Of a stretch of 64,000 bases of DNA, positions 6,056 to 37,767 are shown in pieces (positions within the stretch are counted from its first letter, which is position 1; the number at the start of each line of letters is the position of its first letter). The position numbers and the translations under genes are program-made. Source of the stretch: a virus; the IMG/VR virus record IMGVR_UViG_3300032087_004567, one strand, 5' to 3'. Under the pieces are notes generated by a model. That model was not told the DNA's origin, did no database searches, and was given only the letters and a program-made list of their open reading frames with translations.

Positions 6056-6067
6056 TATATCTCCTTA

Positions 6068-6997
6068 TTATCTCAATCCACCTATTGCTATCTTTGTATT
6101 GTTTATAACATTAATTACATCTGCAACACCCTGTGGTTTACGTAAACCACCTAGTACTTGCACTGCATTTCCTACTTTAATTAATTTTTGTAAAACACTT
6201 TCTTCTCTTTCTTGTTGAATTTGTCTTACATTTATTCTTTCTATCTTCCAATTAAAATATGTAAACGTAATTGGTAATCTTGCAATGTTATCATTATCAC
6301 CCCATGATAGACCAATATCACCCATAAAGATTGGAAATATATCTCTAAAGCGAACATTTACTATATCATTATTACTTTCATCAACTGTTGTTACTAGCAT
6401 ATCAGTTGCATAATTTTCTTTATAATTTACCCCAAATGGATGAGGATTAAAAACTGAACGTGTATCTATTTGATTATCGCTTTGAGGAACTTTAGAATGA
6501 TATGGCATTTCGTCAAACATAATAATACCATTTATCCAATCATTAAAAAAGTTTTGTACTACACCAGATCCATCAACAAAGAAAGATAGTGTTGTGTCAA
6601 CAAATACTGGTGAATAAGGTTTTCTTTCTAATGGTCCAGTTCCATATCTTCTTATTTCAGAAGTAGCTAACGATATACCTGGTAATGTTGCTGATTCAGT
6701 TAAAAAAGCTAAACTTCTGGCTTCATCAGATCTATTTGCCATCATTGGAGGTGGGAATATCTCTACATAAAAATAATTTGGCTTAGTAAAACTATTTAAT
6801 CTATTAATATTAGAGATAAGATTGTTCATATCTCTTCTATTCTCTTTTGGTGCTAATCCTTCACCTGTATTAAAAATACCTTTTATTGCTTTTCTTATAC
6901 CAGCAGGTACACCAGGAAAGTCAGCTACAGCTCCAGCAACACCAGCTACATCTCGTGCTTTAGATATTCCTTTTTGAATTTGATCTGATATTGCCAT
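6068..6997 (-). CDS. gp54: Tail-tube-fold baseplate protein / tube initiator (gp54/gp19-like)
   Basis: KPN.F.V.I..P, ESATLPG, PY...F...TLSF, IFP...G.I.LSW, L.ITFTY..W motifs of the T4 tube family. Confidence 0.7.
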   Translation of the reverse strand: MAISDQIQKGISKARDVAGVAGAVADFPGVPAGIRKAIKGIFNTGEGLAPKENRRDMNNLISNINRLNSFTKPNYFYVEIFPPPMMANRSDEARSLAFLTESATLPGISLATSEIRRYGTGPLERKPYSPVFVDTTLSFFVDGSGVVQNFFNDWINGIIMFDEMPYHSKVPQSDNQIDTRSVFNPHPFGVNYKENYATDMLVTTVDESNNDIVNVRFRDIFPIFMGDIGLSWGDNDNIARLPITFTYFNWKIERINVRQIQQEREESVLQKLIKVGNAVQVLGGLRKPQGVADVINVINNTKIAIGGLR

Positions 6998-7602
6998 TAA
7001 CTTCTGCCTCTAACGTTATTATAGTTTCTTATAGTTCTTAAACTATCTCTATGAACTACATTTATATTTGCTTTTCTAAATCTTTGTAATGGTAAGAATA
7101 AAGCAACCTCCCATTGATCTGGAGGTACCATTATAAATCTACTTCTTACCTGAGTATTTAGATAGTATTTAAAACAAGGTCTAAAAAATCTTAACTTTCT
7201 TAATGTTTTTAATCTATCATAAGTCATTCTAATTCTAGTCATTAAATCACCAGTACCAGTTACAAACTTGTATAAATTATCCATTAACATTGCTCTATAG
7301 GTTAATGGCAGATAATGCATATTAATTCCAGTAAATCCTTCTTCTTTTACATCTATTAAAAATATAACTGGAAACATATCATAATATGGTAGTTCCATTC
7401 TTAGCTTTGGATTATATTTAAACAGATATAACCTGCCTGGTAATAATCTATTAGTACCAAGACTTTGTGATGTCTTAGTTATTACACTTTGTGTATTTTT
7501 TATTTCTGCCTGTTGTGCTGTTTCTCTAAACCATAATCTTGCATCAACAACTCTATCTTCAGGTATCTTATCATTTAAAAAGTCGGTAAACTTAATTGCC
7601 AT
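6997..7602 (-). CDS. gp2: DNA end protector protein
   Basis: PG.LY.F.Y.PK...LPYYD.FP, G.N.HYLP...R, PC.K.YL, W..A.FLP..RF. Confidence 0.92.
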   Translation of the reverse strand: MAIKFTDFLNDKIPEDRVVDARLWFRETAQQAEIKNTQSVITKTSQSLGTNRLLPGRLYLFKYNPKLRMELPYYDMFPVIFLIDVKEEGFTGINMHYLPLTYRAMLMDNLYKFVTGTGDLMTRIRMTYDRLKTLRKLRFFRPCFKYYLNTQVRSRFIMVPPDQWEVALFLPLQRFRKANINVVHRDSLRTIRNYNNVRGRS

Positions 7603-8024
7603 TATTTAATACCAAGTTCTTTTTCCGTCATAATCATAAATTTCCATTTTCTATCTTCGCAGAATGCTTTAGCAGCTTTCCATTTAGCTGTATTAATACC
7701 ATATGTTCTAACCTCATTAATATATCTTCTATTAGCCTTTTGTTTAATTTTTGGTGGTCGAACTTGTATACCTGGCTTTACTTCAATAACTATTGTCTCA
7801 TTCTTCTTTTTAACTAGAAAATCTGGATAATAACGATGTATCCTCCCATCTATTGGTGATCTATAAGGAATAGAAAATTCTTCAGATGCCCATTCAACTA
7901 TATCAGAATGGCTATCTAAATATATCATAAGCTTTAGTTCCCAATTACTACGATAAATAATATTGAGAGGGTTACCAATATATTTTTTAGGATTTTTGGG
8001 CCTGAAGATTCCTTTATAACTCAT
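7602..8024 (-). CDS. gp4: Head completion nuclease; start re-assigned to ATG 8024 (MSYKG)
   Basis: YKG.F.P.NP.KY.G, YRS.WE, W.SEE..IPY, HRYYPDF, IEVKP, N.AKW.AA. Confidence 0.95.
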   Translation of the reverse strand: MSYKGIFRPKNPKKYIGNPLNIIYRSNWELKLMIYLDSHSDIVEWASEEFSIPYRSPIDGRIHRYYPDFLVKKKNETIVIEVKPGIQVRPPKIKQKANRRYINEVRTYGINTAKWKAAKAFCEDRKWKFMIMTEKELGIK

Positions 8025-8029
8025 AGAGA

Positions 8030-8037
8030 TATTTATG
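8030..8037 (-). promoter_or_regulatory. T4-type late promoter variant CATAAATA for the gp4 operon
   Basis: CATAAATA 5 nt before the gp4 ATG; overlaps the gp48 start codon on the opposite strand. Confidence 0.65.
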
Positions 8038-9213
8038 CCGTTTAAGCCAGAAGACATTTTAAAACAAGCAACTTCATTATCACAACAATTTGATAAGTCA
8101 TTTAAGTCAAGTGTTGATTCATTTGCAACTAGAGCAGATGGATTTGTGAAAAGCGCACCAACAAGTTTAGGTCAAAATCTACCTACAATTAATGATTTAG
8201 CAGGTAAGTTAGGAAAACTAGGATCATCTATATCAGGTTCAGTTAATGGTGCATTAAATCAACTAGGTCAAATTGGATCATTTACTAAGTTTCAGGATAC
8301 ATTTATACCTCCTTCTAAATTAGAAGATATTACACCAGAAGAAGCAAGACTAAAAGGAAGGCAATTTATATTTAAAGGAGATTTAACATACCCTATTGAC
8401 CTAGCAAATTATTTTATTAGCTTTAAATTTAAAGAATATGAAAGAAAAATACCTTTAGGAGAAAAGAAAGAATTTCCTGTATTAACTGTCAATCTTCCTG
8501 TACCTGGTAATCTATCTGAAAATTTTAATATGAATTATGCTGATGCAGAATTAGGGTTGTTAGGAATGCTAGATGAAAACATTCAAAAAGAAACAGTTGG
8601 TAAAATAACAAGTCTAGGAGGTGCAGATGGTGCTGAAGCTACAGGAAAGGGTTTAAGAGAAACTATTACTGATCCTACAGCATTAGGATATGCAGGTAGA
8701 AAGGTTGCAGGTATAGTAGATGCAGCATCTGGTTTAAATACAACCGGTGTAACACAAAAGCTAACTGGTGCAGTTCTTAACCCTTTTCAGACTTTATTAT
8801 TTCAAGGTACTAATTTAAGATCACATACATTTGAATATAGGTTTTCACCTAGATCTAAAAAAGAAACAGAAATATTAAAAAAGATTATTAACGAATTCAA
8901 AAAGAGAATGCACCCAGGTAAAAAAGGATTTCTGTTTACCTTCCCACAAGTTGTCGATATTGAGTTTGGTATGGGTGCCGAAGCTGAACCTTACTTTTTT
9001 AAAACATGCTTTCTAGAAAGCATGGGTGTAAATTATGCACCATCTGGCATACCTGCATTTTTTGGTAATTCAGCTGATCCAGTTGAAATTAATCTATCAT
9101 TAACATTAAAAGAGATTACACCGCTTACTAGTGAAGATTTTGGTGGATCTAAAAATGAAGTTAATATACCTTATCAAGGTATGAAATTTGATAACGAAAA
9201 TAATAACGGATAA
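8035..9213 (+). CDS. gp48: Baseplate tail-tube cap
   Basis: YP.D, LP.P..L, NP....LF.G..LR.H.F.Y.FSPRS..E, C.LES..VNY.P, L.L.LKEI. Confidence 0.85.
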   Translation: MPFKPEDILKQATSLSQQFDKSFKSSVDSFATRADGFVKSAPTSLGQNLPTINDLAGKLGKLGSSISGSVNGALNQLGQIGSFTKFQDTFIPPSKLEDITPEEARLKGRQFIFKGDLTYPIDLANYFISFKFKEYERKIPLGEKKEFPVLTVNLPVPGNLSENFNMNYADAELGLLGMLDENIQKETVGKITSLGGADGAEATGKGLRETITDPTALGYAGRKVAGIVDAASGLNTTGVTQKLTGAVLNPFQTLLFQGTNLRSHTFEYRFSPRSKKETEILKKIINEFKKRMHPGKKGFLFTFPQVVDIEFGMGAEAEPYFFKTCFLESMGVNYAPSGIPAFFGNSADPVEINLSLTLKEITPLTSEDFGGSKNEVNIPYQGMKFDNENNNG

Positions 9214-23297: not shown

Positions 23298-26200
23298 ATG
23301 CCGATAGATACCAATTTAAATGTTACACCTTACTACGATGATTATAGTGAGGATAAAAACTTTCATCGAGTTTTGTTTAGACCTGGTGTAGCGGTACAGG
23401 CAAGAGAATTAACTCAATTACAAACCATCTTACAAAACCAAGTTGAAAGATTTGGTGATAACATTTATAAAACCGGTACTATAATTAGAGGTTGTTCACT
23501 TACAACTGATTATGGTGCAAATTATATTAAGATTGGTGATTCACAAAATGACGGTCAAGCAGTATCTTTAAGCTCTTATGCAAATACTTTAGTAGTACAA
23601 GAGGCAGTTAATTTACATTCCTATGTTGTCAATTCAGTAACTGGTCTTGTTGCAAATGATCCTGATTTAAATACCTTATATATTAAGTATATAAACACTG
23701 GTACAGGCAACGAAAAAAATTATTCAGCTGGTCAAACAGTAAAAATATTTAATAGAGAAAGAACAGTTGAAGATGTAGATATTGATACAGGCGGTAGCAG
23801 TTACTCAAACAGTGATACTATTACATTTAGTGGTGGCGGAGGATCCGGTGCTACTGCAACTATTACCACAGATGCATCTGGTACTATTACTGATGTATCT
23901 ATGGCATCTAAAGGTTCTGGATATACTACTACACCTAACGTATCTATTACAACAAGCACTGGTAGTAGTGCTACATTAACCGCTATTAATTACATTGCAG
24001 AAGTAACAGTATCTTCATTAGCAAATTCTGTTGGTATAGGTACTACAGTTAAATCAAGCGAAGGTGTTATATTTCAAAAAGGACATTTTGTTAGAGTTGC
24101 ACCTCAAGAAATAGTAGTAGAAAAATTTTCTAATCTACCCGATGATAAAGTTGTTGGTTTTAGAACAATAGAAACTATTTCAAATAGTAATATCGATAGT
24201 TCACTTCTTGATGTAGCAACAGGAACTCCAAATGAGAACGCTCCAGGTGCTAATAGATTAAAATTAGAGCCATCATTAACAGTTATGGCAAGTGCTAATG
24301 CAACTACTAATAATGAGTTTTTAGTTTTATTAGAATATCAAAATGGTAATATTGTAAGAGATAGAACATCTACACAATTTAACGCAGTTAATAAAGAACT
24401 AGCAAGAAGAACTTTTGATGAAAGTGGTAATTATATTCTTAAACCAGTTAAGTTAGATGTTGAAGCCATATCATCTAACACTACTCATAATAATTTAGTA
24501 GTCGGCCCTGTTACAGCTTATGTAAACGGTGTAAGAGCTGAAACATTAAATCATGTTAGAATCGCACAAAGAAAAGGCGATGATTTTGCAAATAATACTA
24601 ACCAAACAATTAATACATCTTTTGGTAATTACATAATTGTAGATGAGTTAGCAGGTACGTTTGATATTAAAACCGGTGAACAAATATTATTAAAAGATAC
24701 AGCAGAAGATGCAGTATCAATTGGTCTTGGTACTATTGCCGATCCCGGTACTACTATTGGTAATGCAAGAGTAAGAGGCTTTGAATATCATAGTGGTGTT
24801 GTAGGTAAACCTAACTGTCAATATAAACTATTTTTATATGATATAAAAATGAACGCATCACGTTCGTTTAAAGATGTAAAGAGTGTATTTGTAGCAACTA
24901 GTGGTGTTGCAGATTTAGTTTTAAATACACAAGGTCAGGCAGAATTAAAAGATACAGATCAGAATAAATTAGTATTTGATTCTGGTACGTTTGCAATTAA
25001 AGAATTAAACAATGAAGAATATTTATTTAAAGCATTTACAAATGCTACATTTACTACCGGTGGTTCTGCAACATTAACCTTTTCAGGTGGTAATACTTTA
25101 CCTTATGGTACAGGTAATTTAACTGACGCCAATAAAGAAGAATGGTTAGTTATACCACATTCAAATGTACATTTCTTAGCAAATAATACTGGTACAGTAA
25201 GCAAGACATCTGGTTCTAATTCAGTAACTGGATCAGGTACATCATTTACATCTGATTATACTGTAGGTGATTTTATATCAATTAAAGACAGTGCAAGTGC
25301 TACAGATTTATTAGAAATTACTGCAATTACTAATAATGAATCTCTATCTGTAAGAACTAATGCAGGTACTACAAATGCTTCTGCAGTTGCAAGTATTGGT
25401 TTTCCTGGTAACGTTCCAATCGATATGACTAAAGGCTCTAGAGAAATTACAATTAATTCAACTACTAGTGTAACAGTCAATCTAGGTGCAGGTACAAATG
25501 TAGCAACCGACTTTACAGTACATAATATTTTACAAAATGATTCACCAACAGTAAGAGCTAAGACTTTAAATAATCCAGTCTATATTAAATTATCTACAGA
25601 TAGTTTAGCTAATACAACTACTGGTCCTTGGAGTTTAGGAGTACCAGATGTACTTTCTATTGAAGCAGTATATGTAGGAACAAGTAACACATATTCTGAA
25701 ACTGGTACTAATTATCAAGATCAATTTGAATTAGATGATGGTCAAAAAGATAACTATTATGGATTATCTAATATTAAGTTATCACCTGGTGCTACTTTAT
25801 CTCTAACTTCAAGCTCTAATCTTTTAGTTAAAGCTAAAGCATTTACACATGGTACAGGTAAATATATCTCAACAGAATCATATCCTGTAGATGATACAAC
25901 TACAGTTCTACCTTCTAATAAAATTAGAACAGAATCTATTCCAATATATGTTTCTAAGCAAACCGATCTTGCATTATCATTAAGAGATTCTATAGACTGC
26001 AGACCTATTGTAAGTAATACAGCAGATGTATCAGCAACAACTGCAGGTGCTGCATCAATTGATCCATCTAATACAGAAACTTTTGATACCAATGAAAAGT
26101 TTTTCCCATCACCATTAAGATCTTTTACTACTGATATTCAAGCATATCAAGGTAGAATTGATAGATTAATTGTTGATGAAAATGGACTAATAAGAATTAA

Positions 26201-29200
26201 AGAAGGTATTCCAAGTTATGCACCAGTACCTCCAGCAACAGAGGTAAGAACATTACCACTAGCAATGATATATGTTGCACCATTTCCAACGTTATCTTCT
26301 AAAGAGGCTAATGATGCCAAGAGACCTGAATTACAAAACTCTATTAAGTATAACAGTACAGTACGTTATACAATGGAAGATATTAGGGATATAGAAAATA
26401 GATTACAAAGAGTAGAATATTATGCATTAATTAATACTCTTGAATCTAATACTATTGCTAAAACATTAACAAGCGATGCAAATAATCAAATAGAATTATT
26501 TAAGAATGGATTTATGGTCGATGCGATGGATAATTATATTGTATCTGATCTTAACGATGGTGAATATAAAGCACAAATTGATGCACCAACATCAAGGTTA
26601 CATCCACAAGAGGCATCAGTACCAATTGATTTAAAATATAATAATGGTGATAGTTCTAATATTACTAAGACTGGTAATATACTTACATTACCATTTAGCG
26701 AAGTAACATTAGTAAATCAACCTATTGCAAACAAACAAAGAACATTAGTTGAAGATAACTGGGCATTTGGTGGTAGTATGCAAGTTGTACCAAGAGTTGA
26801 TAACTTCTTTGATTTAGATGTTACAGGCTCTTCAACAATTAATATTAATATTGCTGATCCTATATCACAATTAGTAAGAGCGCAAAATGCAATTAATAGA
26901 GCTATTACACAAACATCTTCTACTACAACTAACCGTTCTAGAGATTTAGTTTTCCAAGGTAGTGGTTTAAATGATTGGAATGCATGGGCTAGAGATTGGA
27001 TAGGTAATAGACCAAGTTCAACTACAGTTCATAAAAATACTGTTACTACTACAACAAGAACATCATTTCAAGGTATTACAGTACCTCCAACAAAATCATC
27101 AGTAAATGAGGTAGGTAATTTCTTAACCAGTGTATCTATTAATCCTTATATAAGAGCACAAAAAATATGCTTGTATATCAATGGTTTAAGACCTGGTGCA
27201 GAACATTTTGTATTTTTTGATAATACAGATATATCTAGTAGTTGTAGACCTGGATTGTTACCTGAATCAGTAACTGGAGAACTTTCTGTTGATGACTTCT
27301 TAGAGACAGCATCTAAAACTGGTTCACAAACATTAACTGCTAATTCAACAGGTGAACTTGCTGTTATAGTAAACATGCCAGCAAATACATTTACCTCAGG
27401 GGAAAAAGAATTTTTAGTTATGGACTTTAACACTCTTGCTTCAGAAGATTCAGCTACATCTAAAGCAATAGGTAAGTTTGCATCATTTGGTACATCAGGT
27501 GCTGCAACTGCATTAACAGTTAATACTAAAGATTTTGATTTATCAAGCGGTCATAGTTTTGCAAGAAGAACATTCTCACAAACAAGAACAACCAGAAGAG
27601 AGTGGCATAGTATTGTTGTAAGAGCATGGGATCCATTATGTCAAACATTTACTGTAGATAGACAAAAAGGAAGTGATTATCTATTAGTAAGCTCAGTAGA
27701 ATTATATTTTCAAGGTAAAGATGCAACAAGAGGTGTTGCTATTGAATTAAGAGAGGTAGATCAAGAAACAGGATATCCTACTACTTTATCAATACCATAT
27801 TCTAGAGTATATAAGAGACCTGCAGATATTAATACTAGTGCAACAGCAGCAACATCTACTAAATTTACTTTTAATTCACCATTAGTTTTAAAAGCAGGTG
27901 TTGAATATGCAATAGTTATATCACCTGATGCTAACTCGCCAGATTATAGAGTATGGACATCTGAACCAGGTGTACCAGATGTTACTGATACATCTTTAAT
28001 ATCTAATCAAAGTTGGGGTTTAGGTACATTATTCTCCTCTACTAGTAATAGGGCATTCTCTGCAATACAGGGTGAAGATCTTAAGTTTAAAGTTAACAGG
28101 GCTGAGTTTAGTAGTCAATCAGGAACAGCAGTATTAGAAAACGGTGATTATGAATTTTTAACTGTAAATGTTGCAAGTGGTAGTTACACAGGTGGTGAAG
28201 ATATTGCACAAATGGATCATGCATATATTGATACAGCTCTAACAACTAATACATCAAGTAGAGTTATTACTACTAATAACGATTTAACTTCTACATTATC
28301 TGTAAATGATAAAGTATTAGTAATATATGGAACAAGTAATTCAGAAAGTACAGCAAACGTAACAGTAACTGGAGTAACGGTTACTAATGCAAGTTCAACA
28401 ACTACTGATTTTAGTAATGAATATTCAGCAGGTGACTTCATACAAATTGGTGATGAAGTAAGACAGGTAGTTTCTATTGCTAGCGCTACAAGTTTAAATG
28501 TCGATGTAGCTTTTGTAAGTACTATTACCAACGATAAGCATTATGCAGTAACTGAAAAGTTTGATGTATTTACCGTACAGGCAGCAAATAGTACTTCATT
28601 TACAGTTAATAGACCTCCTGCATATGTTGTCAATACATTTAATAAAGCAGTATTACAAAAAGTTGTTACTGGTAGAATGGATTACTATAATTCATCAGAT
28701 CAAAAATTATATCTTAGAGATAGTACTTCAGCTAATAGTACACATTTATTTGAAGCTGCAAATAGTACATACTTAGGATACTTAGTTGGTGATCAATCAG
28801 AAGCACAATCTAAACTCTTTAGTGTAGATAATGTTAAGTTTAGTAAGTATACACCATTTATTAATAATTTAATTTTACCTCAAACAACTCTTGCTTTAGA
28901 TACAGAGGTAACTAAGTCAGGTGGTGGTACTGCTACTGAAGCACATCTATTTACAGAACAAAATGTCTTACAATGTAACGATACAGCAGTAGTTAAAAGT
29001 AGATCTAATGAAATTAGTGGTACAACAATTACTAAATCATTTACAGCAAATATTCAATTTACTGCAACATATGACGATACATCACCAGTAGTAGATGTTA
29101 ATCCATCAAGCGTATTAGTCATAAACTATAACATTAATAATAGCTATGCAGATGAAAATACTAGATATGGTAATTCATCATGTAAGTACATATCTAAGAG

Positions 29201-29855
29201 ATTAGTATTAGAAGATGGTTTAGATGCAGAAGATGTTAAAGTATTTGTAAGAGCATATAAACCAAGTGGATCTGATATTAAAGTATATGCTAAAATATTA
29301 AGTAGTCAGGATCCAGAATTATTTGAAGATAAGGACTGGTCTCCATTAAGACAAGTTACTGATGCAGGTGTATTCAGTTCATCTTTAAATAGTGGTGATT
29401 TAAAAGAGTATGAGTTTACATTTAAGAAAACACCAGTAGTATCAGTTATTGCAGGAGCAGCAACAACAAATGCAACTGGTACTAATACTACTATTAACGG
29501 TATAGGTTCTTCATACGATTCAGAACTAGCAAATAACGATTTAATTAAAGTTGTATATACAGATGATGAAGATGATTACGAAGTTGTAAGTGTTGCAAAT
29601 ACACCAGTTGCAGGTTCTTTTGAAATAAGTGCAACATTAGGTACAGCATCATCTTCTGCTAGCATACAAAAAATTACTAATAAAGGTGAAGCATTCAAGT
29701 ATAATCAAAATAGTAATGAAGTAAGATATCATGATAGTGAGAATAGAGCGTATGATGGTTATAAACATCTAGCAATTAAGATAGTATTACTTTCTGAAAA
29801 TGAATATAATGTACCAGAGGTTGATGATTTAAGGGCAGTAGCAGTATCAGTATAA
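23298..29855 (+). CDS. Large virion structural protein (VrlC/DUF4815-like)
   Basis: TNLNV.PYYDDY, LFRPG.AVQARELTQLQ.ILQNQ, APGA.RLK, LARRTFDESGNY, RYTM.DI..IE.R, FKNGF.VD, DPL.QTF, P.V.DLRA.A. Confidence 0.85.
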   Translation: MPIDTNLNVTPYYDDYSEDKNFHRVLFRPGVAVQARELTQLQTILQNQVERFGDNIYKTGTIIRGCSLTTDYGANYIKIGDSQNDGQAVSLSSYANTLVVQEAVNLHSYVVNSVTGLVANDPDLNTLYIKYINTGTGNEKNYSAGQTVKIFNRERTVEDVDIDTGGSSYSNSDTITFSGGGGSGATATITTDASGTITDVSMASKGSGYTTTPNVSITTSTGSSATLTAINYIAEVTVSSLANSVGIGTTVKSSEGVIFQKGHFVRVAPQEIVVEKFSNLPDDKVVGFRTIETISNSNIDSSLLDVATGTPNENAPGANRLKLEPSLTVMASANATTNNEFLVLLEYQNGNIVRDRTSTQFNAVNKELARRTFDESGNYILKPVKLDVEAISSNTTHNNLVVGPVTAYVNGVRAETLNHVRIAQRKGDDFANNTNQTINTSFGNYIIVDELAGTFDIKTGEQILLKDTAEDAVSIGLGTIADPGTTIGNARVRGFEYHSGVVGKPNCQYKLFLYDIKMNASRSFKDVKSVFVATSGVADLVLNTQGQAELKDTDQNKLVFDSGTFAIKELNNEEYLFKAFTNATFTTGGSATLTFSGGNTLPYGTGNLTDANKEEWLVIPHSNVHFLANNTGTVSKTSGSNSVTGSGTSFTSDYTVGDFISIKDSASATDLLEITAITNNESLSVRTNAGTTNASAVASIGFPGNVPIDMTKGSREITINSTTSVTVNLGAGTNVATDFTVHNILQNDSPTVRAKTLNNPVYIKLSTDSLANTTTGPWSLGVPDVLSIEAVYVGTSNTYSETGTNYQDQFELDDGQKDNYYGLSNIKLSPGATLSLTSSSNLLVKAKAFTHGTGKYISTESYPVDDTTTVLPSNKIRTESIPIYVSKQTDLALSLRDSIDCRPIVSNTADVSATTAGAASIDPSNTETFDTNEKFFPSPLRSFTTDIQAYQGRIDRLIVDENGLIRIKEGIPSYAPVPPATEVRTLPLAMIYVAPFPTLSSKEANDAKRPELQNSIKYNSTVRYTMEDIRDIENRLQRVEYYALINTLESNTIAKTLTSDANNQIELFKNGFMVDAMDNYIVSDLNDGEYKAQIDAPTSRLHPQEASVPIDLKYNNGDSSNITKTGNILTLPFSEVTLVNQPIANKQRTLVEDNWAFGGSMQVVPRVDNFFDLDVTGSSTININIADPISQLVRAQNAINRAITQTSSTTTNRSRDLVFQGSGLNDWNAWARDWIGNRPSSTTVHKNTVTTTTRTSFQGITVPPTKSSVNEVGNFLTSVSINPYIRAQKICLYINGLRPGAEHFVFFDNTDISSSCRPGLLPESVTGELSVDDFLETASKTGSQTLTANSTGELAVIVNMPANTFTSGEKEFLVMDFNTLASEDSATSKAIGKFASFGTSGAATALTVNTKDFDLSSGHSFARRTFSQTRTTRREWHSIVVRAWDPLCQTFTVDRQKGSDYLLVSSVELYFQGKDATRGVAIELREVDQETGYPTTLSIPYSRVYKRPADINTSATAATSTKFTFNSPLVLKAGVEYAIVISPDANSPDYRVWTSEPGVPDVTDTSLISNQSWGLGTLFSSTSNRAFSAIQGEDLKFKVNRAEFSSQSGTAVLENGDYEFLTVNVASGSYTGGEDIAQMDHAYIDTALTTNTSSRVITTNNDLTSTLSVNDKVLVIYGTSNSESTANVTVTGVTVTNASSTTTDFSNEYSAGDFIQIGDEVRQVVSIASATSLNVDVAFVSTITNDKHYAVTEKFDVFTVQAANSTSFTVNRPPAYVVNTFNKAVLQKVVTGRMDYYNSSDQKLYLRDSTSANSTHLFEAANSTYLGYLVGDQSEAQSKLFSVDNVKFSKYTPFINNLILPQTTLALDTEVTKSGGGTATEAHLFTEQNVLQCNDTAVVKSRSNEISGTTITKSFTANIQFTATYDDTSPVVDVNPSSVLVINYNINNSYADENTRYGNSSCKYISKRLVLEDGLDAEDVKVFVRAYKPSGSDIKVYAKILSSQDPELFEDKDWSPLRQVTDAGVFSSSLNSGDLKEYEFTFKKTPVVSVIAGAATTNATGTNTTINGIGSSYDSELANNDLIKVVYTDDEDDYEVVSVANTPVAGSFEISATLGTASSSASIQKITNKGEAFKYNQNSNEVRYHDSENRAYDGYKHLAIKIVLLSENEYNVPEVDDLRAVAVSV

Positions 29856-30915: not shown

Positions 30916-33027
30916 ATGGCAGCAAATAATCAAAACTTTAGAGTAAAGTATGGCTTAGATGTAACGGAAAATTTAAACGTTACAGGTGATCTTACCGTAA
31001 ACGGTGCAATTCAATTATCAAATTCAGTAACCATAGAAAATCTAACTGTTACTGGTAATGCAGAAATAACAGCTGCTCTTTCAACACAAAACACATCACT
31101 TGTATTTTCAGATGGATTAACATTATCTGATCCACCAGGTAGTAATGTATCAGTAACAGTAAATAGAGGTTCATCAGCTAATGTTGAACTATCTTGGAAT
31201 GAGGTAAATGATAGATGGGAATTTACAAATGATGGATCAAGTAGATATCCATTAAAAACATACGATGATAATTATTCTTTCACATTTGATAATTCAGTAA
31301 TAGATACTGATTCAGATCCAGGTGATAATACTATTATATTTAATAGTGCCAATAACGCGGCTGCAAATGTTATTGCAGTAGATAATAAAATAGTTGGTGG
31401 TGCAAATGTTGCAGCATTTCTTGCAACTTTAGATGATGGTAATTCAGATCCAGCAGGTACAATAGTTATTAAAGATATTGATGATACAACAAAAACACAA
31501 TCCTTTACCTATAGTACAGTTGTAGCCAATACAGGTTTTGTACAATTTACAGGAGTTAGTTGTATTGAAACAGCCAATGTTGCATATGCAAATGGTGACA
31601 CACTTGCATTGAACTTTATTCGATATGGTGATAAAGGTCAAAAAGGTGAAAAAGGACAAAAAGGTCAGAAAGGTGAACTAGGACAAAAAGGTGAACAAAT
31701 TAATAGTGCATCTTTTGATGACGGTACTAATACAACAACCTTTACAAACTCCGATGCAAGTACATTTAATATTGTTGGACTAAAAGGTCAAAAAGGTGAG
31801 AAGGGTCAAAAAGGACAAAAAGGAGAACTAGGTCAAAAAGGCGATAAAGGAGATACAGCATTAACCGGTAATACAGTTGTAACGGCTTTTGCAGAATCAA
31901 ATACATCTTTTGGTACACATAATGCTATAATGAACGGTAACTTTGAATATTGGCAAAGAGGAACTTCAATAGATAATGTTTTCTCTAATGATGATTTTGC
32001 AATCAATAGTGATACAGAATATGTCTGTGATAGATGGAAGTTAATTAGTGATGGTAATAACATAGTTGATTTAGGCCGTGAAACTACTAACACACCAACT
32101 TACACACATGGTAAAGAACAATATGCATTTAGATTTGATGTTGAAACCACAGGAAGTAAATTTGGAATAATACAATATATTGAAAGACAAAATTGTCAGG
32201 ATATTATTGAGGCAGGTGTTGCCACTTTATCTTTTAAAGCAAAAACATCTGATGCAACTACTATTGATAATGTTAAGGCAGCTATTATTTCATGGTATGG
32301 GGGTACTAATGGTTTATCTAATGATCCAATATCGGCATGGAATGCTGATGCTACTAACCCTACTCTTAATACTAATTTTAACTATGAAAATTCACCAGTA
32401 AATTTAAATATATCTGATTCTGAATTTACAGATGTAACCATTACAGCTAGTTTTGCCGATCCTAGTCCAAGTACTATTCAGAATCTAGCGGTTATGATTT
32501 GGTGTGATATTTCTGATGCAAATGTAGGTGACTTCCTATACATATCAAATGTACAGCTTGAAAAGGGAAGCGTTGCTACACCATTTGTTCGACCAGATCC
32601 TGCTTTAAAAGCAGTACAGATGCAAAGATATTATGCTAAAACAGATGCTGATATAGATATGCAACTTATTTGTGCTGCAGCAGCTGATTCAGTATTTGGA
32701 GGAGCAGTATTTACAAATGCTATAATGCCAAACGTTAGAGGAAGTACAGCAAGATGGATACGTAAAGGTTCTGGTACTGGTACTCGTAATACAACGTTTG
32801 TTTTAGATATAGTACCTGATAATAATAGTCACCTTGGACGTTCTGGTGGCTATACAGTAAACAGTTTTGCAGTCGGTCAAGCATCACCTGAAGGTATAAG
32901 TCGTTTAAGATATAATATGTCTTATGGGCATACTAAAACTGTAGTTTCAGGTGGTAATAGAGTAAATCAAGTATCAGATGGAGGAAGTCATCCATATGGT
33001 AAAATTGAATGGTTAGGAGAGTTATAA
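30916..33027 (+). CDS. Collagen-repeat tail fibre/adhesin with C-terminal putative carbohydrate-binding domain
   Basis: FRVKYGL N-terminus, V.RG....L.WNE..D.W, two Gly-X-Y blocks, NAIMNGNF.YWQRG...VQLEKG..AT.F...QRYY. Confidence 0.8.
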   Translation: MAANNQNFRVKYGLDVTENLNVTGDLTVNGAIQLSNSVTIENLTVTGNAEITAALSTQNTSLVFSDGLTLSDPPGSNVSVTVNRGSSANVELSWNEVNDRWEFTNDGSSRYPLKTYDDNYSFTFDNSVIDTDSDPGDNTIIFNSANNAAANVIAVDNKIVGGANVAAFLATLDDGNSDPAGTIVIKDIDDTTKTQSFTYSTVVANTGFVQFTGVSCIETANVAYANGDTLALNFIRYGDKGQKGEKGQKGQKGELGQKGEQINSASFDDGTNTTTFTNSDASTFNIVGLKGQKGEKGQKGQKGELGQKGDKGDTALTGNTVVTAFAESNTSFGTHNAIMNGNFEYWQRGTSIDNVFSNDDFAINSDTEYVCDRWKLISDGNNIVDLGRETTNTPTYTHGKEQYAFRFDVETTGSKFGIIQYIERQNCQDIIEAGVATLSFKAKTSDATTIDNVKAAIISWYGGTNGLSNDPISAWNADATNPTLNTNFNYENSPVNLNISDSEFTDVTITASFADPSPSTIQNLAVMIWCDISDANVGDFLYISNVQLEKGSVATPFVRPDPALKAVQMQRYYAKTDADIDMQLICAAAADSVFGGAVFTNAIMPNVRGSTARWIRKGSGTGTRNTTFVLDIVPDNNSHLGRSGGYTVNSFAVGQASPEGISRLRYNMSYGHTKTVVSGGNRVNQVSDGGSHPYGKIEWLGEL
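31627..31698 (+). repeat. Collagen-like block 1, (Gly-X-Y)8
   Basis: GDK GQK GEK GQK GQK GEL GQK GEQ. Confidence 0.95.
31777..31857 (+). repeat. Collagen-like block 2, (Gly-X-Y)9
   Basis: GLK GQK GEK GQK GQK GEL GQK GDK GDT. Confidence 0.95.
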
Positions 33028-33386
33028 TGTCATATCAGATAGTTAATGAAGAAGGTAATGAAATTATGCATCTAGAAGAAAAATATACTATCTTTACAGA
33101 TGGTCCTCCTAGTCAGCAATTAAGCATCTATAAAGAATGGTTAGCTGAAGGTAACGTACCCTTACCTAGAGCACCTATGTCTAATGATGATATATTACAA
33201 GGTATCAGAGATGATAGAAATCTAAAATTAGCTGAATCTGATTGGACACAATCTGGAGATGTTCTTACTTCTAGTAAAAGAGCAGAATGGGCAACATACA
33301 GACAGCAATTAAGAGATTTACCTGAAAGTATTACTAATCCACTAGAATGGAGAGAGGCAGACAACTGGCCATCAAAACCTGATTAA
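33027..33386 (+). CDS. Tail fibre assembly chaperone (start probably ATG 33027)
   Basis: Y.EWLAEGN.P plus R..RN.KL..SDWTQ..D...W.TYRQ.LRDLP...WP.KP; AGGAG RBS. Confidence 0.75.
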   Translation: MSYQIVNEEGNEIMHLEEKYTIFTDGPPSQQLSIYKEWLAEGNVPLPRAPMSNDDILQGIRDDRNLKLAESDWTQSGDVLTSSKRAEWATYRQQLRDLPESITNPLEWREADNWPSKPD

Positions 33387-33400
33387 ACTATAATTATATT

Positions 33401-35371
33401 ATGAATATTTTTGTTATTAATTTAAAGCATAGAGTTGATCGTCTTCAATATATTAAAAATCAACTAAAGGATTATCAATATACTATTATTGATGCAGTTG
33501 ATGGATACCACCTTGAAGATCAAGAATATAATATTTTTAAAAACTGGATAGACCCAACAACAGGTAGATTTGGTTTAACAAATGGTGAGATAGGATGTGC
33601 TCTATCACATATAAAAGCATGGAAAGAAGTTGTAAAATTAAATAAGCCTAGCATTATATTAGAAGATGACACGCTTTTAAGACAAAAGATAGATTTTAAT
33701 CTAATAAACGAACACATAAATGAATCAGGATTTCTTTATCTTTATCATAGAGAGATGCAACCTGAAAAAAGTAAATCAGTAGATTACTTTAAAAATATTC
33801 CTGCATATCCATATATGGCTAATGCATATATTTTAACCCCTATTTTTGCTAAAAAACTATTAGACTACAACTTACAAAATAATTTAATACCTGTTGATGA
33901 ATTTTTTCCTTTATTAAATGGTATGAATTATGAAACAGATTATATACATGATGCTGAAGCATGTTATAGTAAGCAGGTATTCTGTAATTTTAAAAAACTT
34001 AATAAACTATTTAATAAAGATTTAAAAGAAAAATTTTATGCTTTAAGATTAAAGGAAAATTTTAGACCTGCACGTAATACGTTTTCTTCTGATATAGAGT
34101 GTAGTTATAGTAATGAAAATCTTTTATCTGTTGTTACAGCATATGATGATGAATCTAAAGCTTCCATGCTTATTAAATCATGTAATGTAAATAAAATAAA
34201 AATAAAAAATTTATGTGAGGGTATACCATGGAATGGTGGTAGTATGAAATCTACCGGTGGGGGTCAAAAAGTAAATTTACTTTACGATCATTTATTAGAA
34301 CTTAAAAAACAAGATAAAGGTAACTTTATCGTATTATTTGTCGATGGTTTTGATGTTATAATAAATGATACTGAAAAAGAATTGTTGCAAAAATTTAATG
34401 ATATGAAAGTAAATATTGTTTTTGCAGCGGAGAAGAATTGTTGGCCTGATCAATCCTTAGCAAAATATTTTGAGTCATATGGAAACGATAACCGCTTTTT
34501 AAATAGTGGTTGTATAATAGGTTATGTTGATTCTTTATTAGAGTTAATTGAAAATAAAATAAAAGATACTGATGATGATCAATTATTCTATCAAAAGAAA
34601 TATCTTGATAAAAAGAAAGAACTAAATGCTGTTTTAGATTATGAATGTTACATCTTTACATGTCTTGCTGGTGCAGAACGAGAAATAGGATATTTAAGTA
34701 ATAGACAATTTGTAAATGGTTATACTAATTCTTGTCCATCTATCTTACATGGAAATGGTGGAGATAAATCAAAACAGAAGTATAAACAAATATGTGATGA
34801 ATATTTAAGCTTCAATCAAATACTACCTTCTACAACTAGTATAAGTGTTGTTGCACCTGAAATACTACAATGTAATTTTTTAAGTAAAGATGATTGTAAT
34901 CAAATAATTAGACAAGCAAACTATTTTGATAATTGGAAATCAATGCCAGGTGATAAGTTTCCAGGACAGGAAGTACGAATAAGAGACTTTAGTCATGTTA
35001 TTTTTAATATTATAAAAGATTATTTAAAGAGTAGAATTTATTCGGCAATAGAAGAATACTGGAAACCTTTATTAATGTACGGTATAAGAGATATGTTTGT
35101 AATTAAATATAGTGAAGGTGAACAAACTAGCCTACCCTTACATCATGATGCATCTCTTGTAAGTTTTAGTATTAAATTAAATGAGGATTATGAGGGGGGA
35201 GAACTTATATTTCCTAGACAGAATTTTTCTAATATAAACGTAAATGTAGGTGATGCTATTATATGGCCAGGTCAAGTAACACATGGTCATAGATGTAATA
35301 CTCTTACAAAAGGTACTAAATATAGCCTAACAATTTGGACATCAAGATACCCTAAAGATAAAAATTATTAA
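33401..35371 (+). CDS. Putative trifunctional collagen-modifying enzyme: COLGALT-like GT25 + PLOD-type glycosyltransferase + 2OG-Fe(II) lysyl hydroxylase
   Basis: GT25: INL..R.DR, AVDG, GEIGC.LSH, EDD, PVDEF.P. PLOD GT: GGGQKV, FVDGFDV, AE..CWP, RFLNSG, DDDQLFY, HGNG. Hydroxylase: Q.SL..HHDAS, DYEGG, PG..TH.H, GTKY. Confidence 0.88.
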   Translation: MNIFVINLKHRVDRLQYIKNQLKDYQYTIIDAVDGYHLEDQEYNIFKNWIDPTTGRFGLTNGEIGCALSHIKAWKEVVKLNKPSIILEDDTLLRQKIDFNLINEHINESGFLYLYHREMQPEKSKSVDYFKNIPAYPYMANAYILTPIFAKKLLDYNLQNNLIPVDEFFPLLNGMNYETDYIHDAEACYSKQVFCNFKKLNKLFNKDLKEKFYALRLKENFRPARNTFSSDIECSYSNENLLSVVTAYDDESKASMLIKSCNVNKIKIKNLCEGIPWNGGSMKSTGGGQKVNLLYDHLLELKKQDKGNFIVLFVDGFDVIINDTEKELLQKFNDMKVNIVFAAEKNCWPDQSLAKYFESYGNDNRFLNSGCIIGYVDSLLELIENKIKDTDDDQLFYQKKYLDKKKELNAVLDYECYIFTCLAGAEREIGYLSNRQFVNGYTNSCPSILHGNGGDKSKQKYKQICDEYLSFNQILPSTTSISVVAPEILQCNFLSKDDCNQIIRQANYFDNWKSMPGDKFPGQEVRIRDFSHVIFNIIKDYLKSRIYSAIEEYWKPLLMYGIRDMFVIKYSEGEQTSLPLHHDASLVSFSIKLNEDYEGGELIFPRQNFSNINVNVGDAIIWPGQVTHGHRCNTLTKGTKYSLTIWTSRYPKDKNY

Positions 35372-35411: not shown

Positions 35412-35741
35412 ATGGCAACTAAAGCAAATCTTGTTATTGATCAAGGCACTACATTTTCAACTACTGTTACTTTAACTGATGATAATGGTGATTTAGTTAA
35501 TTTAGTTGATTATACCGGTGCTGCACAAATAAGAAAACATTTTACTTCATCAACTGCAACAAGTTTTGATGTTACTTTAGGTGGTGCAAATGGAACGGTT
35601 ACAATTGCATTATCTGCTAATACTACATCTGGTCTTACAGCAGGTAGATATGTATATGATGTTGAATTAACTGATTCTGCATCTGCAGTATCAAGAGTAT
35701 TAGAAGGTATTGCAACAGTGACGCCTGAGGTAACTAAGTAA
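35412..35741 (+). CDS. Small Ig-like virion adaptor protein
   Basis: NL.IDQG.TF, L..YT..AQIRK, G.Y.YDVE, R.LEG...V.P.VT. Confidence 0.65.
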   Translation: MATKANLVIDQGTTFSTTVTLTDDNGDLVNLVDYTGAAQIRKHFTSSTATSFDVTLGGANGTVTIALSANTTSGLTAGRYVYDVELTDSASAVSRVLEGIATVTPEVTK

Positions 35742-36028
35742 TGCCTATTAATCAATCAGGATTAACAGTAACTGTAAGACAGAGTTCAGGTATATCTGCA
35801 CAATTAGGAAGCAGAACAAATATATCAAACACTGCACCAATAACCCTTAAGAGTCAATCAGTATCAGTAAGTCAATTAGCAAACTTACTAGATGTGGATG
35901 AAACCTTCGAAGCTAATGGAACTGTTCCTGATGGAAGTACATTAGTATATGATTTGGATACTGATAAATATATTGTAAAAAGAATAGAATCAGATGATAT
36001 TACGTCAGTAGACGGAGGAACATTTTAA
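35741..36028 (+). CDS. Small fibre linker protein ending in DGGTF
   Basis: L..L.DVD, DG..LVYD, terminal DGGTF. Confidence 0.55.
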   Translation: MPINQSGLTVTVRQSSGISAQLGSRTNISNTAPITLKSQSVSVSQLANLLDVDETFEANGTVPDGSTLVYDLDTDKYIVKRIESDDITSVDGGTF

Positions 36029-37767
36029 TGGCGAACACCACAATTCAAATTAAAAGGAGTACATCAAATGCTGCTCCCGTATTACAACCTGGAGAGTTAG
36101 CATATACCGCAAATGGTGAAATCCTTTTTATTGGTAGTGCAGTTGGGTCAGATACCTCCAATACTATTCCAATAGCTGGAAAAAGAACACCAGGTACGTT
36201 AACTGCAAATCAAGCAATTGTAGCTAATAATTCAAGTTGGGTAGATAATTTATACACAGCCAACCTTGCAATAGGTACTCCAGCATCAAATAAAAATATT
36301 ACATCTATTACCGATGATGGTAACCTGGCATCTGTATCAAATAATATGCTTGTTACATCATGGGCTATTAAAGACTATGTTGATAATAATTCAGCTGCAG
36401 AGTTAACTGGTTTAGATGATGTAGATACAACAGGTATTGCAAATAATTATTATCTAGTATATGATAATACAGCATCTAGATGGGAACCACATTTTATTCA
36501 AGGTACTGCAAATGAGGTAGATGTTGCATTTAGTAATAATGATTTAACTATTGGCCTACCAGCCGATGTTGATATTACTACATCTTTAGATGTTGGTGAT
36601 GTTGCAGTAAATACAACTACAGTTGATGTCGGTAATTCTACAGTAAATGCTTTAGCTAATTCTACAACAGTTTTAGTTAGCGATGCAACAAATGTATTAA
36701 CAGTAAATAGTTCTGCAATTGATCTTGCAGGCTCAGTTGATATAGGAAACTCAACAGTAAATGCATTAGCAAATTCTACAAGTTTAAATGTAAGTGATGC
36801 AACTAATGTACTAGCTGTTAATTCATCTTATATCGATTTAGGATCAGGTGGTACAGTTGAGGTAGGTAATTCAACAGTTAACGTTGCCGCCAATTCTACT
36901 ATAGTAAGAGTTATAGATGCATCATCTAATGTTACTATTAATAGTACAGCACTTGCAGTAGGTAATTTAGTTGCTGCAGAAGATAGAATAGATATAGGTA
37001 ATTCAACTGTTAATACAGTTATTACACAAAATACAATTATAACCGATGGTTACTTAGATGTTACAGGTAATGCAACATTTGCAAATGTTATTACAGTTAC
37101 TGGCAATGCATCATTTAGTAATCAAATTACCGTTACTGGCAATGTAACTGTTACTAATGTTGCAACATTCCAAAATAATGTATCAATTGCAGGTACATTA
37201 ACAGTAGAAGATTTAACTGTACAAGGAACGCTAACATCACTTGAGACTACTAATTTAGAGGTAGAAGATGCAGTAATTAGACTTGCAAAAGGACAAGCAA
37301 ATACAGGAACATTTACAGATGCAACTGATATTGGATTTTATGGTGAGTATGGTAATACATCTGCAGAGACTTATACTGGTTTAGTAAGAGATATAACATC
37401 AAATACTTATATTTTATTTGATAATTTAACTACGGATCCAAGTTCTGATGGTGTAGATTCTAGTACAGATCTGGCTACTTTAAAAACGTTATTTGCATCA
37501 CCTGGATTAGTTTCTAATACAACAAATATTTCTATAACAGCTAATTCATCTTTTACTGCAAATATTGTTGCTAATACATTAACCTTATCAACTGATTTAG
37601 AGGTTGCCGAAGGCGGTACTGGACAGTCTTCATTTACTAATAATGGTATTTTATTTGGTAATACTGCAGGTGCAATATCAGTTACAGCAGCAGGAACAAA
37701 CGGACAGGTATTACAAGTAACATCAAACGTGCCAACATTTGGAATGCTAGATGGAGGTACATTTTAA
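36028..37767 (+). CDS. Tail fibre shaft protein with Mtd-like N-terminal domain
   Basis: IQIKRS...P.L..GELA, GNSTVN repeats, V.G.L.V.G, D..I.L, GGTG, terminal DGGTF. Confidence 0.7.
   Translation: MANTTIQIKRSTSNAAPVLQPGELAYTANGEILFIGSAVGSDTSNTIPIAGKRTPGTLTANQAIVANNSSWVDNLYTANLAIGTPASNKNITSITDDGNLASVSNNMLVTSWAIKDYVDNNSAAELTGLDDVDTTGIANNYYLVYDNTASRWEPHFIQGTANEVDVAFSNNDLTIGLPADVDITTSLDVGDVAVNTTTVDVGNSTVNALANSTTVLVSDATNVLTVNSSAIDLAGSVDIGNSTVNALANSTSLNVSDATNVLAVNSSYIDLGSGGTVEVGNSTVNVAANSTIVRVIDASSNVTINSTALAVGNLVAAEDRIDIGNSTVNTVITQNTIITDGYLDVTGNATFANVITVTGNASFSNQITVTGNVTVTNVATFQNNVSIAGTLTVEDLTVQGTLTSLETTNLEVEDAVIRLAKGQANTGTFTDATDIGFYGEYGNTSAETYTGLVRDITSNTYILFDNLTTDPSSDGVDSSTDLATLKTLFASPGLVSNTTNISITANSSFTANIVANTLTLSTDLEVAEGGTGQSSFTNNGILFGNTAGAISVTAAGTNGQVLQVTSNVPTFGMLDGGTF
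36631..37014 (+). repeat. Four ~38-44-aa internal repeats anchored on GNSTVN
   Basis: GNSTVN encoded at 36631, 36745, 36865 and 36997. Confidence 0.85.

Follow-up and report, generated by a model that had tools for sequence, protein, structure and literature searches.

A putative collagen lysine hydroxylase-glycosyltransferase encoded beside a collagen-like tail fibre in a T4-like phage

The stretch of viral DNA analysed here (IMG/VR record IMGVR_UViG_3300032087_004567; 64 kb, called the window) encodes a 656-amino-acid (aa) enzyme in which three catalytic domains of the kind that modify collagen are fused in one chain, close to a tail fibre with collagen-like blocks. The enzyme is best read as a putative cytoplasmic, single-chain counterpart of the complex that human LH3 (PLOD3) forms with COLGALT1, and it probably modifies lysines of the linked fibre. 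This reading is carried by the homology of the domains, the conservation of catalytic residues, the order of the genes and a statistical link between the enzyme and a short collagen motif. Enzyme and fibre make up a real, well-supported and uncharacterised enzyme-substrate module, of which we infer the function and for whose chemistry there is precedent.

The chemistry and the folds are known from animals and from the mimivirus proteins L230, R655 and R699 (PMC9546862, PMC12279948). What is new is that three catalytic domains are fused and that neither the PLOD accessory domain nor the COLGALT1 scaffold half comes with them, together with the occurrence in tailed phages, the embedding in a tail-fibre module and the associated collagen motif. 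Full-text literature searches found no paper on the phage form of the enzyme. The original prediction that no such module had been described in a bacteriophage is in agreement with these searches, but it has to be qualified, as the family is already catalogued, without function, as PHROG 61. In 2010 Iyer and colleagues predicted that bacterial dioxygenases modify collagen-like proteins and noted dioxygenase gene clusters in cyanophages; the present enzyme was not described by them (PMC2938197). In a study of pelagimyophages, glycosyltransferases of the fibre region were read as modifiers of the host lipopolysaccharide (LPS) (PMC7029224).

Domain make-up and relatives of the enzyme

The enzyme gene (33401..35371, + strand) codes for a protein whose N-terminus, as read from the sequence, has neither a signal peptide nor a membrane segment. 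Its assignment rests on Pfam, alignments, a structural model and PHROG 61 ('2OG-Fe(II) oxygenase', moron/AMG category), which matches it over the full length (E 5e-93). A three-domain make-up had been proposed from the letters alone and was recovered by Pfam, with all three domains above the curated cut-offs: Glyco_transf_25 (PF01755) at aa 2-168 (97.6 bits, cut-off 24; E 1e-27), GT_PLOD (PF25342) at aa 239-458 (194 bits, cut-off 27; E 3e-57) and 2OG-FeII_Oxy_3 at aa 567-647 (E 1e-6). Domain 1 (aa 1-175, 33401..33925, +) is a GT25 domain like the GalT-C half of COLGALT1 and is a candidate hydroxylysine (Hyl) beta-galactosyltransferase. Domain 2 (aa 239-473, 34115..34819, +) is a PLOD-type glycosyltransferase of GT-A fold, for which glucosyltransferase activity on galactosyl-hydroxylysine (Gal-Hyl) is proposed. 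Domain 3 (aa 481-656, 34841..35368, +) is a predicted PLOD-type lysyl hydroxylase dependent on 2-oxoglutarate (2OG) and Fe(II).

The AlphaFold model (mean pLDDT 85.7) has three globular domains, a helical linker at aa 176-238 and no fourth domain. The PLOD accessory domain, suspected from the beginning to be missing, is indeed absent: the hydroxylase match starts about 10-20 residues past the glycosyltransferase domain, and on mimivirus L230 it starts at profile position 450, right after the glycosyltransferase domain. Both PLOD catalytic domains are thus present, and the canonical order of glycosyltransferase, accessory domain and hydroxylase is not. The match to COLGALT1 is limited to chain residues of about 303-500, so that the enzyme begins at the catalytic lobe and is devoid of the GalT-N scaffold half.

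The nearest relatives of each domain are enzymes that act on collagen. It should be noted that the grouping of domains is a ranking by score and structure, not a phylogeny. When the single sequence was searched against the PDB, domain 1 found COLGALT1 (E 2e-16) ahead of mimivirus R655 (1e-6) and bacterial GT25 (1e-3), domain 2 found mimivirus R699 (E 3e-35) and human LH3 (E 3e-33; 34% identity to its glucosyltransferase domain), and domain 3 found LH3 (E 1e-8), L230 (7e-7) and PiuC (1e-5). A family profile was built from 25 diverse homologs, 37-47% identical to the window enzyme. It matched LH3 with 254 bits in two stretches, one in the glycosyltransferase and one in the hydroxylase, and the L230 hydroxylase with 65 bits (4e-17); COLGALT1 received 141 bits, R655 56 and bacterial GT25 52, and no prolyl hydroxylase reached E 0.1 in this search. 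Foldseek gave the same order of ranking. The model superposed on the human glucosyltransferase domain (6wfv) with a TM score of 0.87 and 2.1 Å root-mean-square deviation (rmsd) over 230 columns, on R699 with an rmsd of 2.2-2.4 Å, and on L230 with a TM score of 0.74 and an rmsd of 2.0-2.4 Å. For the GT25 domain COLGALT1 was found at E 8e-15 and bacterial GT25 at E 3e-7, and prolyl hydroxylases came at E ~1e-7 with an rmsd of 5-7 Å. Profile and structure searches had been set beforehand as the check on the domain assignments. Their outcome places domain 1 with COLGALT1 and not with the GT25 enzymes of LPS synthesis, and domain 3 with LH3 and L230 and not with prolyl hydroxylases.

These scores also bear on the possibility that the enzyme is a glycosyltransferase of LPS or O-antigen that alters the surface of the host. 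The source annotations do read 'GR25 family glycosyltransferase involved in LPS biosynthesis', LPS biosynthesis is also what the Pfam GT25 family takes its name from, and modification of the host O-chain is the explanation favoured for such genes of the fibre region (PMC7029224). Still, we regard it as very improbable. The bacterial structure outscored by COLGALT1 is a beta-1,4-galactosyltransferase, the chain carries a fused lysyl-hydroxylase domain with an intact Fe/2OG site that has no role in LPS synthesis, and its N-terminus offers nothing for export or membrane attachment. The mimivirus enzymes L230 and R655 have likewise been mis-annotated as LPS enzymes (PMC9546862).

The catalytic residues were mapped by alignment to LH3 and COLGALT1, with the roles of residues as reported in PMC11897130. 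In human LH3, D112, D115 and H253 are the Mn ligands of the glucosyltransferase and Y656, H667, D669 and H719 belong to the hydroxylase site; mutations at either site disrupt the activity of the human complex (PMC11897130). In the GalT-C site of COLGALT1, E435-x-D437 supplies the metal ligands, D522 is the proposed catalytic base and G377 contacts the uracil (PMC11897130). D315, D318 and H450 of the phage enzyme align with the LH3 Mn ligands, that is, the DxxD motif and the distal His are present, and domain 2 also keeps the GGGQK loop, the CWP motif and the DDQ helix. Y570, H581, D583 and H630 align with the hydroxylase site and include the HxD...H iron triad (H581/D583/H630). E88, D90, D166 and G35 align with E435, D437, D522 and G377, and a single numbering offset of +40 fits all three points of the COLGALT1 mapping. 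Every mapped residue except G35 is invariant in the alignment of 25 homologs; G35 fits the family consensus AxDG. Because the metal ligands and catalytic residues map to family-invariant residues, all three domains look catalytically competent. All motifs that had been quoted at the outset were found, each in alignment with the human protein named for it: with LH3 both those of the glycosyltransferase (GGGQKV, FVDGFDV, AEKNCWP, RFLNSG, DTDDDQLFY, HGNG) and those of the hydroxylase (LHHDAS, QVTHGH, GTKY), and the COLGALT1 strings given alongside (yrdpyhgr-pltkgelgc, pvdeflp) occur in the COLGALT1 alignment. The sequence description made from the letters alone held up in all its points.

Linkage to collagen-like fibres

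The proposed substrate is a 703-aa tail fibre protein of the T4-like baseplate/fibre module (30916..33027, +; phrog_4492 tail fibre, E 8e-26). It scores 31.9 bits against Pfam Collagen PF01391, where the cut-off is 27.2, and its repeats run uninterrupted. Block 1 (aa 238-261, 31627..31698, +) consists of 8 triplets (GDK, GQK, GEK, GQK, GQK, GEL, GQK, GEQ) and block 2 (aa 288-314, 31777..31857, +) of 9. Both contain K-G-Q-K-G-E, and 58 of 72 aligned bases are identical between the two blocks. As had been claimed for this fibre, a scan of all six frames over 64 kb found the two blocks to be the only runs of at least four Gly-X-Y triplets in the window, and over the 17 triplets Lys stands at Y in 13 and Pro does not occur.

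The enzyme belongs to a large phage family. More than 1000 protein clusters at 90% identity were found, nearly all of the same architecture and either unnamed or carrying the LPS name given above, and at least 536 IMG/VR loci encode a relative. ESM Atlas clusters of this architecture (52-262 members) are 98-100% viral and fall in Uroviricota. The only isolates with the enzyme are S-CAM9, S-PRM1, S-8S53/55/56 and roseophage CRP-6. S-CAM9 and S-PRM1, which are cyanomyoviruses, and CRP-6, which is unrelated to them, have the enzyme immediately downstream of a tail fibre gene and the gene of a small protein; in CRP-6 the latter is of the PF16778 chaperone family, as in the window, and the fibres of all three contain GxKGQKG collagen runs. 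Full-length copies in genome collections are on contigs of metagenome-assembled genomes, again beside Lys-bearing collagen genes.

Linkage was counted in 82 IMG/VR loci, three isolate loci and the window, which form 16 enzyme lineages by single linkage at 60% identity. A Lys-bearing collagen open reading frame (ORF) lies within 10 kb of the enzyme in 13 of the 16 lineages. One further lineage (L004) has short GEKGQKGEKGER blocks near the enzyme that resemble those of the window, and another (L073) has a Lys-bearing collagen gene at a distance of 16 kb. The predicted co-occurrence of enzyme homologs with Lys-bearing collagen genes thus extends across distant phages. Loci found by IMG/VR pattern scans have uneven flanks, and counts over the loci listed are to be read as samples. 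A scan of IMG/VR for any run of 12 Gly-X-Y triplets served as background and gave 77 usable collagen genes among the matches listed. Lys at Y amounts to 26.6% in the pooled enzyme-linked collagens versus 4.4% in these 77 randomly scanned viral collagens, the medians per locus are 0.26 and 0.00, and the difference persists at the level of lineages (Mann-Whitney p = 1e-7).

A number of observations weigh against the assignment of the enzyme to fibre lysines. The collagen blocks of the fibre are short (8 and 9 triplets), and the enzyme-bearing loci are related to one another. Donor-sugar specificity is not readable from homology. One lineage (L017, L018, L025, L026, L030) has no Gly-X-Lys run in contigs of 56-93 kb, L026 being represented by a 15.6-kb locus only; the records of this lineage are estimated by CheckV to be 15-26% complete, a figure that points to very large genomes. 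In Acidimicrobiia, relatives of the hydroxylase domain have no collagen-like gene within 10 kb. Among in-frame (Gly-X-Lys)5 viral loci the enzyme was found in 1 of the 74 among the matches listed, and there as a fragment only. Moreover, Lys at Y has a reason independent of the enzyme: K-G-E/D salt bridges stabilise Pro-poor triple helices, which accounts for Lys in Pro-poor bacterial collagens. In the catalytic sites, F317 in the DxxD motif stands where LH3 has Tyr and the family mostly Tyr, and K640, a Lys invariant across the family, replaces the 2OG-binding Arg of LH3 (GTKY versus GTRY), which binds the C5-carboxylate and which we take to be Arg729. Lys binds 2OG in place of Arg in other 2OG oxygenases, and by this analogy hydroxylase function with K640 is plausible.

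The last two substitutions would suit an enzyme that runs only part of the cascade, with at least one domain serving as an inactive scaffold; the N-terminal half of COLGALT1 may be such a case. The glycosyltransferase fold is also kept in the animal enzymes LH1 and LH2, whose activity of this kind is slight or absent. On the other side, the metal ligands and the proposed catalytic base are invariant in 25 diverse homologs, which would not be expected of a relic domain, and partial inactivity is quite improbable.

Two of the groups just named deserve a further description. In the L017 lineage the enzyme is preceded by a small 2OG oxygenase and by non-collagen fibre-like proteins of 660-720 aa; one of these, of 704 aa, has no similarity to the window fibre. 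The stand-alone relatives of the hydroxylase domain (aa ~469-646, 38-45% identical) are common in freshwater Acidimicrobiia/Ilumatobacteraceae genomes (L328-L400), with examples on chromosomal contigs of 340-510 kb (L350, L365, L380). As these have no collagen neighbour, the hydroxylase fold alone is not tied to collagen.

Most Lys-rich viral collagens are without a linked enzyme; Lys at Y is therefore not diagnostic, and Gly-X-Lys alone is weak evidence. The proposition that a Lys-rich collagen implies the enzyme was dropped after this failure of the converse association, and a narrower collagen motif was sought. Gln occupies X of G-X-K in 37% of cases in enzyme-linked collagens versus 5% in unlinked Lys-rich ones. 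Among the loci listed, K-G-Q-K-G-E occurs in 52 of 58 linked loci, representing 14 of 16 lineages. The unlinked Lys-rich collagens listed have it in 8 of 64 cases, and the random viral collagens in 0 of 80. The opposite holds for K-G-D-K-G, which is found in 21 of 58 linked loci versus 61 of 64 unlinked Lys-rich collagens. The motif was then used as a blind predictor, by scanning IMG/VR with a DNA pattern for G-x-K-G-Q-K-G-E-x-G. The enzyme was present in 27 of the 80 loci among the matches listed (19 complete and 8 partial, most of the latter ending where the available sequence ends), while the generic (GxK)5 scan had it in 1 of 80 (Fisher p = 2e-8), so that the motif is about 27 times better as a predictor. 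Of 21 motif loci in which the sequence extends at least 5 kb downstream of the collagen gene, 10 carry the enzyme. This prediction is the strongest evidence here tying the enzyme to a particular collagen sequence, and it suggests that K-G-Q-K-G-E is the recognition site of the enzyme. Four viral contigs (L240, L256, L261, L446) carry 3-4 tandem collagen genes dense in K-G-Q-K-G-E with no three-domain enzyme in the available sequence; L240 has a 197-aa ORF (5791-6381) that matches the hydroxylase core only.

The motif and the lineage counts also speak against a target other than the adjacent fibre. In that reading the enzyme would act on a small molecule, a host protein or a different virion protein, and the place of its gene would be an accident of a hypervariable region. 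Unrelated genes are known to gather in the fibre regions of pelagimyophages and cyanomyophages (PMC7029224), the L017 lineage has the enzyme and no collagen in the DNA seen, and the Acidimicrobiia hydroxylases do without collagen neighbours. Such a target is nevertheless improbable: collagen linkage spans phages of unrelated types and 13-15 of the 16 lineages, K-G-Q-K-G-E outperforms generic Gly-X-Lys runs by the factor given above, and all three domains are closest to collagen-specific enzymes. Every rival considered here is weaker than the reading in which the enzyme modifies its neighbouring fibre.

It had been suggested that the modification stabilises or shields a Pro-free triple helix, but this is speculation, as many enzyme-linked fibres are Pro-rich at X; with 30-40% Pro at that position in many of them, an enzyme serving a Pro-free helix specifically was rejected. 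In many cyanophage lineages 1-2 extra stand-alone 2OG-Fe(II) oxygenases (~185-205 aa, PF13640) lie between the fibre and the three-domain enzyme, for example in S-CAM9 (L001:7839-9004), L025:9402-10001 and L004:8831-9996, the two L004 ORFs being recognised only by their size and position. Pro exceeded 5% per triplet in 28 of 33 loci with such extra oxygenases and in 10 of 24 loci lacking them (Fisher p = 0.001, for loci that are not independent of one another), and the extra enzymes may be prolyl hydroxylases. The window has neither Pro in its collagen nor extra oxygenase genes.

Proposed pathway and known systems

With the enzyme assigned to the adjacent fibre, the following course of events can be envisaged. 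The enzyme would be made together with the fibre and the chaperone of the fibre. Its C-terminal 2OG/Fe(II) domain would first hydroxylate Y-position lysines of the Gly-X-Lys blocks, probably at K-G-Q-K-G-E, and by analogy with the animal enzymes this would take place on fibre chains that have not yet trimerised. The N-terminal GT25 domain would then add galactose to the hydroxylysine, and the middle PLOD-type domain would attach glucose to the galactose. In this way the short collagen segments of the assembled tail fibre would come to carry glucosyl-galactosyl-hydroxylysine (Glc-Gal-Hyl), and the glycan there could contribute to helix stability, shield the fibre from proteases or affect adsorption. 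Catalysis, the order of steps, the identity of the sugars and a benefit to the virion are what we infer in this scheme.

That Glc-Gal-Hyl would be the exact product is argued from analogy, and we put it at close to an even chance, if slightly below. The pathway could be as proposed with a different chemistry, namely Glc-Hyl, Gal-Hyl only, another second sugar or another order of addition. The glycosyltransferase domain of mimivirus L230, also of PLOD type, transfers glucose directly to Hyl (PMC9546862), both uridine diphosphate (UDP)-Gal and UDP-Glc are bound or hydrolysed by LH3 (PMC11897130), and donor specificity does not follow from a sequence similarity of 24-34%. Against this, COLGALT1-like and LH3/R699-like domains in one chain mirror the human two-enzyme cascade exactly, and R699, the closest viral relative of domain 2, acts on Gal-Hyl, with no activity seen on Glc-Hyl (PMC9546862). 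A different chemistry is thus possible, though rather on the unlikely side.

Among known systems the closest is the human complex of LH3/PLOD3 and COLGALT1/GLT25D1 (the 'KOGG' complex; PDB 8zgc, 6fxk, 6wfv, 9evj). It has the same three catalytic folds, metal ligands and proposed base, and the same presumed target, Lys at Y of Gly-X-Y. KOGG, however, is a 2:2 complex of proteins of about 730 and 620 aa, whereas the phage enzyme is one chain of 656 aa. The phage enzyme differs further in that it has no LH3 accessory domain, no COLGALT1 GalT-N half, no signal peptide and no retention in the endoplasmic reticulum, and it has Lys for the 2OG-binding Arg. Its domains are ordered GT25, PLOD-type glycosyltransferase and hydroxylase, and its presumed substrate, unlike that of KOGG, is a tail fibre with blocks of 8-9 triplets.

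Virus-encoded relatives acting on virus-encoded collagen are known from mimivirus, with L230 (glycosyltransferase and lysyl hydroxylase), R699 (Gal-Hyl glucosyltransferase) and R655 (GT25-like); L230 and R699 carry out these reactions on viral collagen (PMC9546862). Sequence comparison also gave E 1.5e-6 for the L230 hydroxylase with domain 3 and E 5e-6 for R655 with domain 1. Here the activities reside on three proteins, R699 keeps the accessory domain and the host is a eukaryote, all of which is unlike the phage enzyme, and domain 1 of the latter is closer to human COLGALT1 than to R655. Bacterial GT25 lipo-oligosaccharide galactosyltransferases (PDB 8xlz) share the GT-A fold and PF01755 with domain 1, but they have no fused hydroxylase or PLOD-type domain and match far more weakly. 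The collagen prolyl 4-hydroxylases of PBCV-1 and Bacillus anthracis, some of them viral, are 2OG/Fe(II) double-stranded beta-helix enzymes on collagen-like repeats; they resemble domain 3 at the level of fold and not by sequence profile, and the window fibre has no Pro. PHROG 61 and the Uroviricota clusters of the ESM Atlas are the family of the enzyme itself, catalogued without a collagen function or a substrate.

O-glycosylation of Hyl in collagen has been treated as a hallmark of the animal extracellular matrix, with mimivirus as one viral curiosity. The present data indicate that a large phage family, including cyanophages, a roseophage and an AT-rich T4-like phage, packs the three catalytic domains beside the likely substrate. 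If the activity is confirmed, this would be, to our knowledge, the first hydroxylysine-linked glycosylation reported for a bacteriophage virion, and in abundant marine phages tail-fibre biology and host recognition would gain a post-translational layer. The enzyme would then also offer a minimal model of the human LH3/COLGALT1 complex, whose handling of substrate is still unresolved (PMC11897130). Glycosylated collagen in bacteria has been blocked because active human glycosyltransferases are hard to express there (PMC9546862); an active phage enzyme would supply a bacterial-native means of making recombinant collagen in E. coli in glycosylated form. The annotations 'LPS biosynthesis GT25' and '2OG-Fe(II) oxygenase', an error that is widespread, are corrected as well. 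The finding bears, in addition, on the origin of the animal PLOD/COLGALT enzymes. A bolder proposal, that tailed phages hold a self-sufficient, cytoplasmic, single-chain cascade which reads K-G-Q-K-G-E and equips tail fibres with Glc-Gal-Hyl, and that this phage lineage, not animals, is the older source of the PLOD and COLGALT catalytic domains of metazoa and giant viruses, is conceivable and, in our estimate, unlikely.

Phage context and related arrangements

The DNA of the window, with a GC content of 32%, comes from the structural region of a marine T4-like myovirus. It encodes homologs of the baseplate wedge proteins gp6/7/8, tail sheath, portal, major capsid protein, gp59, gp32 and other baseplate proteins. 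The major capsid protein has only 62-67% identity with its counterparts in Stenotrophomonas phage DLP_6, OM43 phage Melnitz, Pelagibacter phage Mosig and cyanomyoviruses. A near-identity search with the 12-kb locus found no match among 50,697 phage records, and therefore the phage is not a sequenced isolate. The identical enzyme, with the same gene order, is present on at least 23 contigs of public assemblies.

The fibre module follows the baseplate genes on the + strand. Its order is a 2185-aa phrog_358 protein, two small ORFs, the 703-aa tail fibre, the PF16778 chaperone, the 656-aa enzyme, a small fibre-assembly-like protein, a 95-aa ORF and a second fibre-like protein. That the enzyme lies two genes downstream of the fibre had been stated at the start and holds true; the intervening gene codes for the tail-fibre assembly chaperone (33027..33386, +; 119 aa; PF16778 Phage_tail_APC, E 5e-15). 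The stop codon of the fibre overlaps the ATG of the chaperone as TAATG, and 14 nt separate chaperone and enzyme. An alternative upstream ATG at 33009 would make the chaperone 125 aa long; on other contigs it is called as 119 aa. Directly downstream of the enzyme is the 109-aa fibre-assembly-like protein (35412..35741, +; phrog_1084 / phrog_3304 'L-shaped tail fiber protein assembly', E 4e-25), and the second fibre-like protein, preceded by the 95-aa ORF, is at 36028..37767. A scan for promoters and terminators gave 46 sites versus 52 expected by chance and was uninformative. The 2185-aa structural protein (23298-29855, +) matches phrog_358 over its full length (E 5e-277) and is located directly after gp8 and ahead of the fibre genes. 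A giant gene of the phrog_358 type, judged by ORF size and position, also precedes the enzyme module in L004 and is downstream of the enzyme in L005.

Other combinations of the same domains were encountered. A chromosomal locus of Streptomyces kronopolitis (L323) has a fusion of PLOD-type glycosyltransferase and hydroxylase (526-aa ORF) followed by a separate GT25 gene, and one of Kaistia terrae (L326), also chromosomal, has the two-domain fusion only (451-aa ORF), with a collagen-like ORF, Pro-rich at Y, about 8 kb upstream. In the ESM Atlas, phages have GT25 with an OGFOD2-like oxygenase (~430-465 aa) and PLOD-type glycosyltransferase with an oxygenase (~437 aa), and giant viruses have Glyco_tranf_2_4 with GT25 and GT_PLOD (~881 aa).

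Two further genes of the window were noted. A 151-aa ORF among the baseplate and tail genes (7602-8057, - strand) has a TnsA-like endonuclease N-terminal domain (PF08722, E 1e-20) and is possibly a homing-type endonuclease. A 629-aa protein adjoining the baseplate genes (1842-3731, - strand) contains a peptidase M23 domain (E 2e-19) and may be a cell-puncturing hub with an endopeptidase in place of the T4 gp5 lysozyme.

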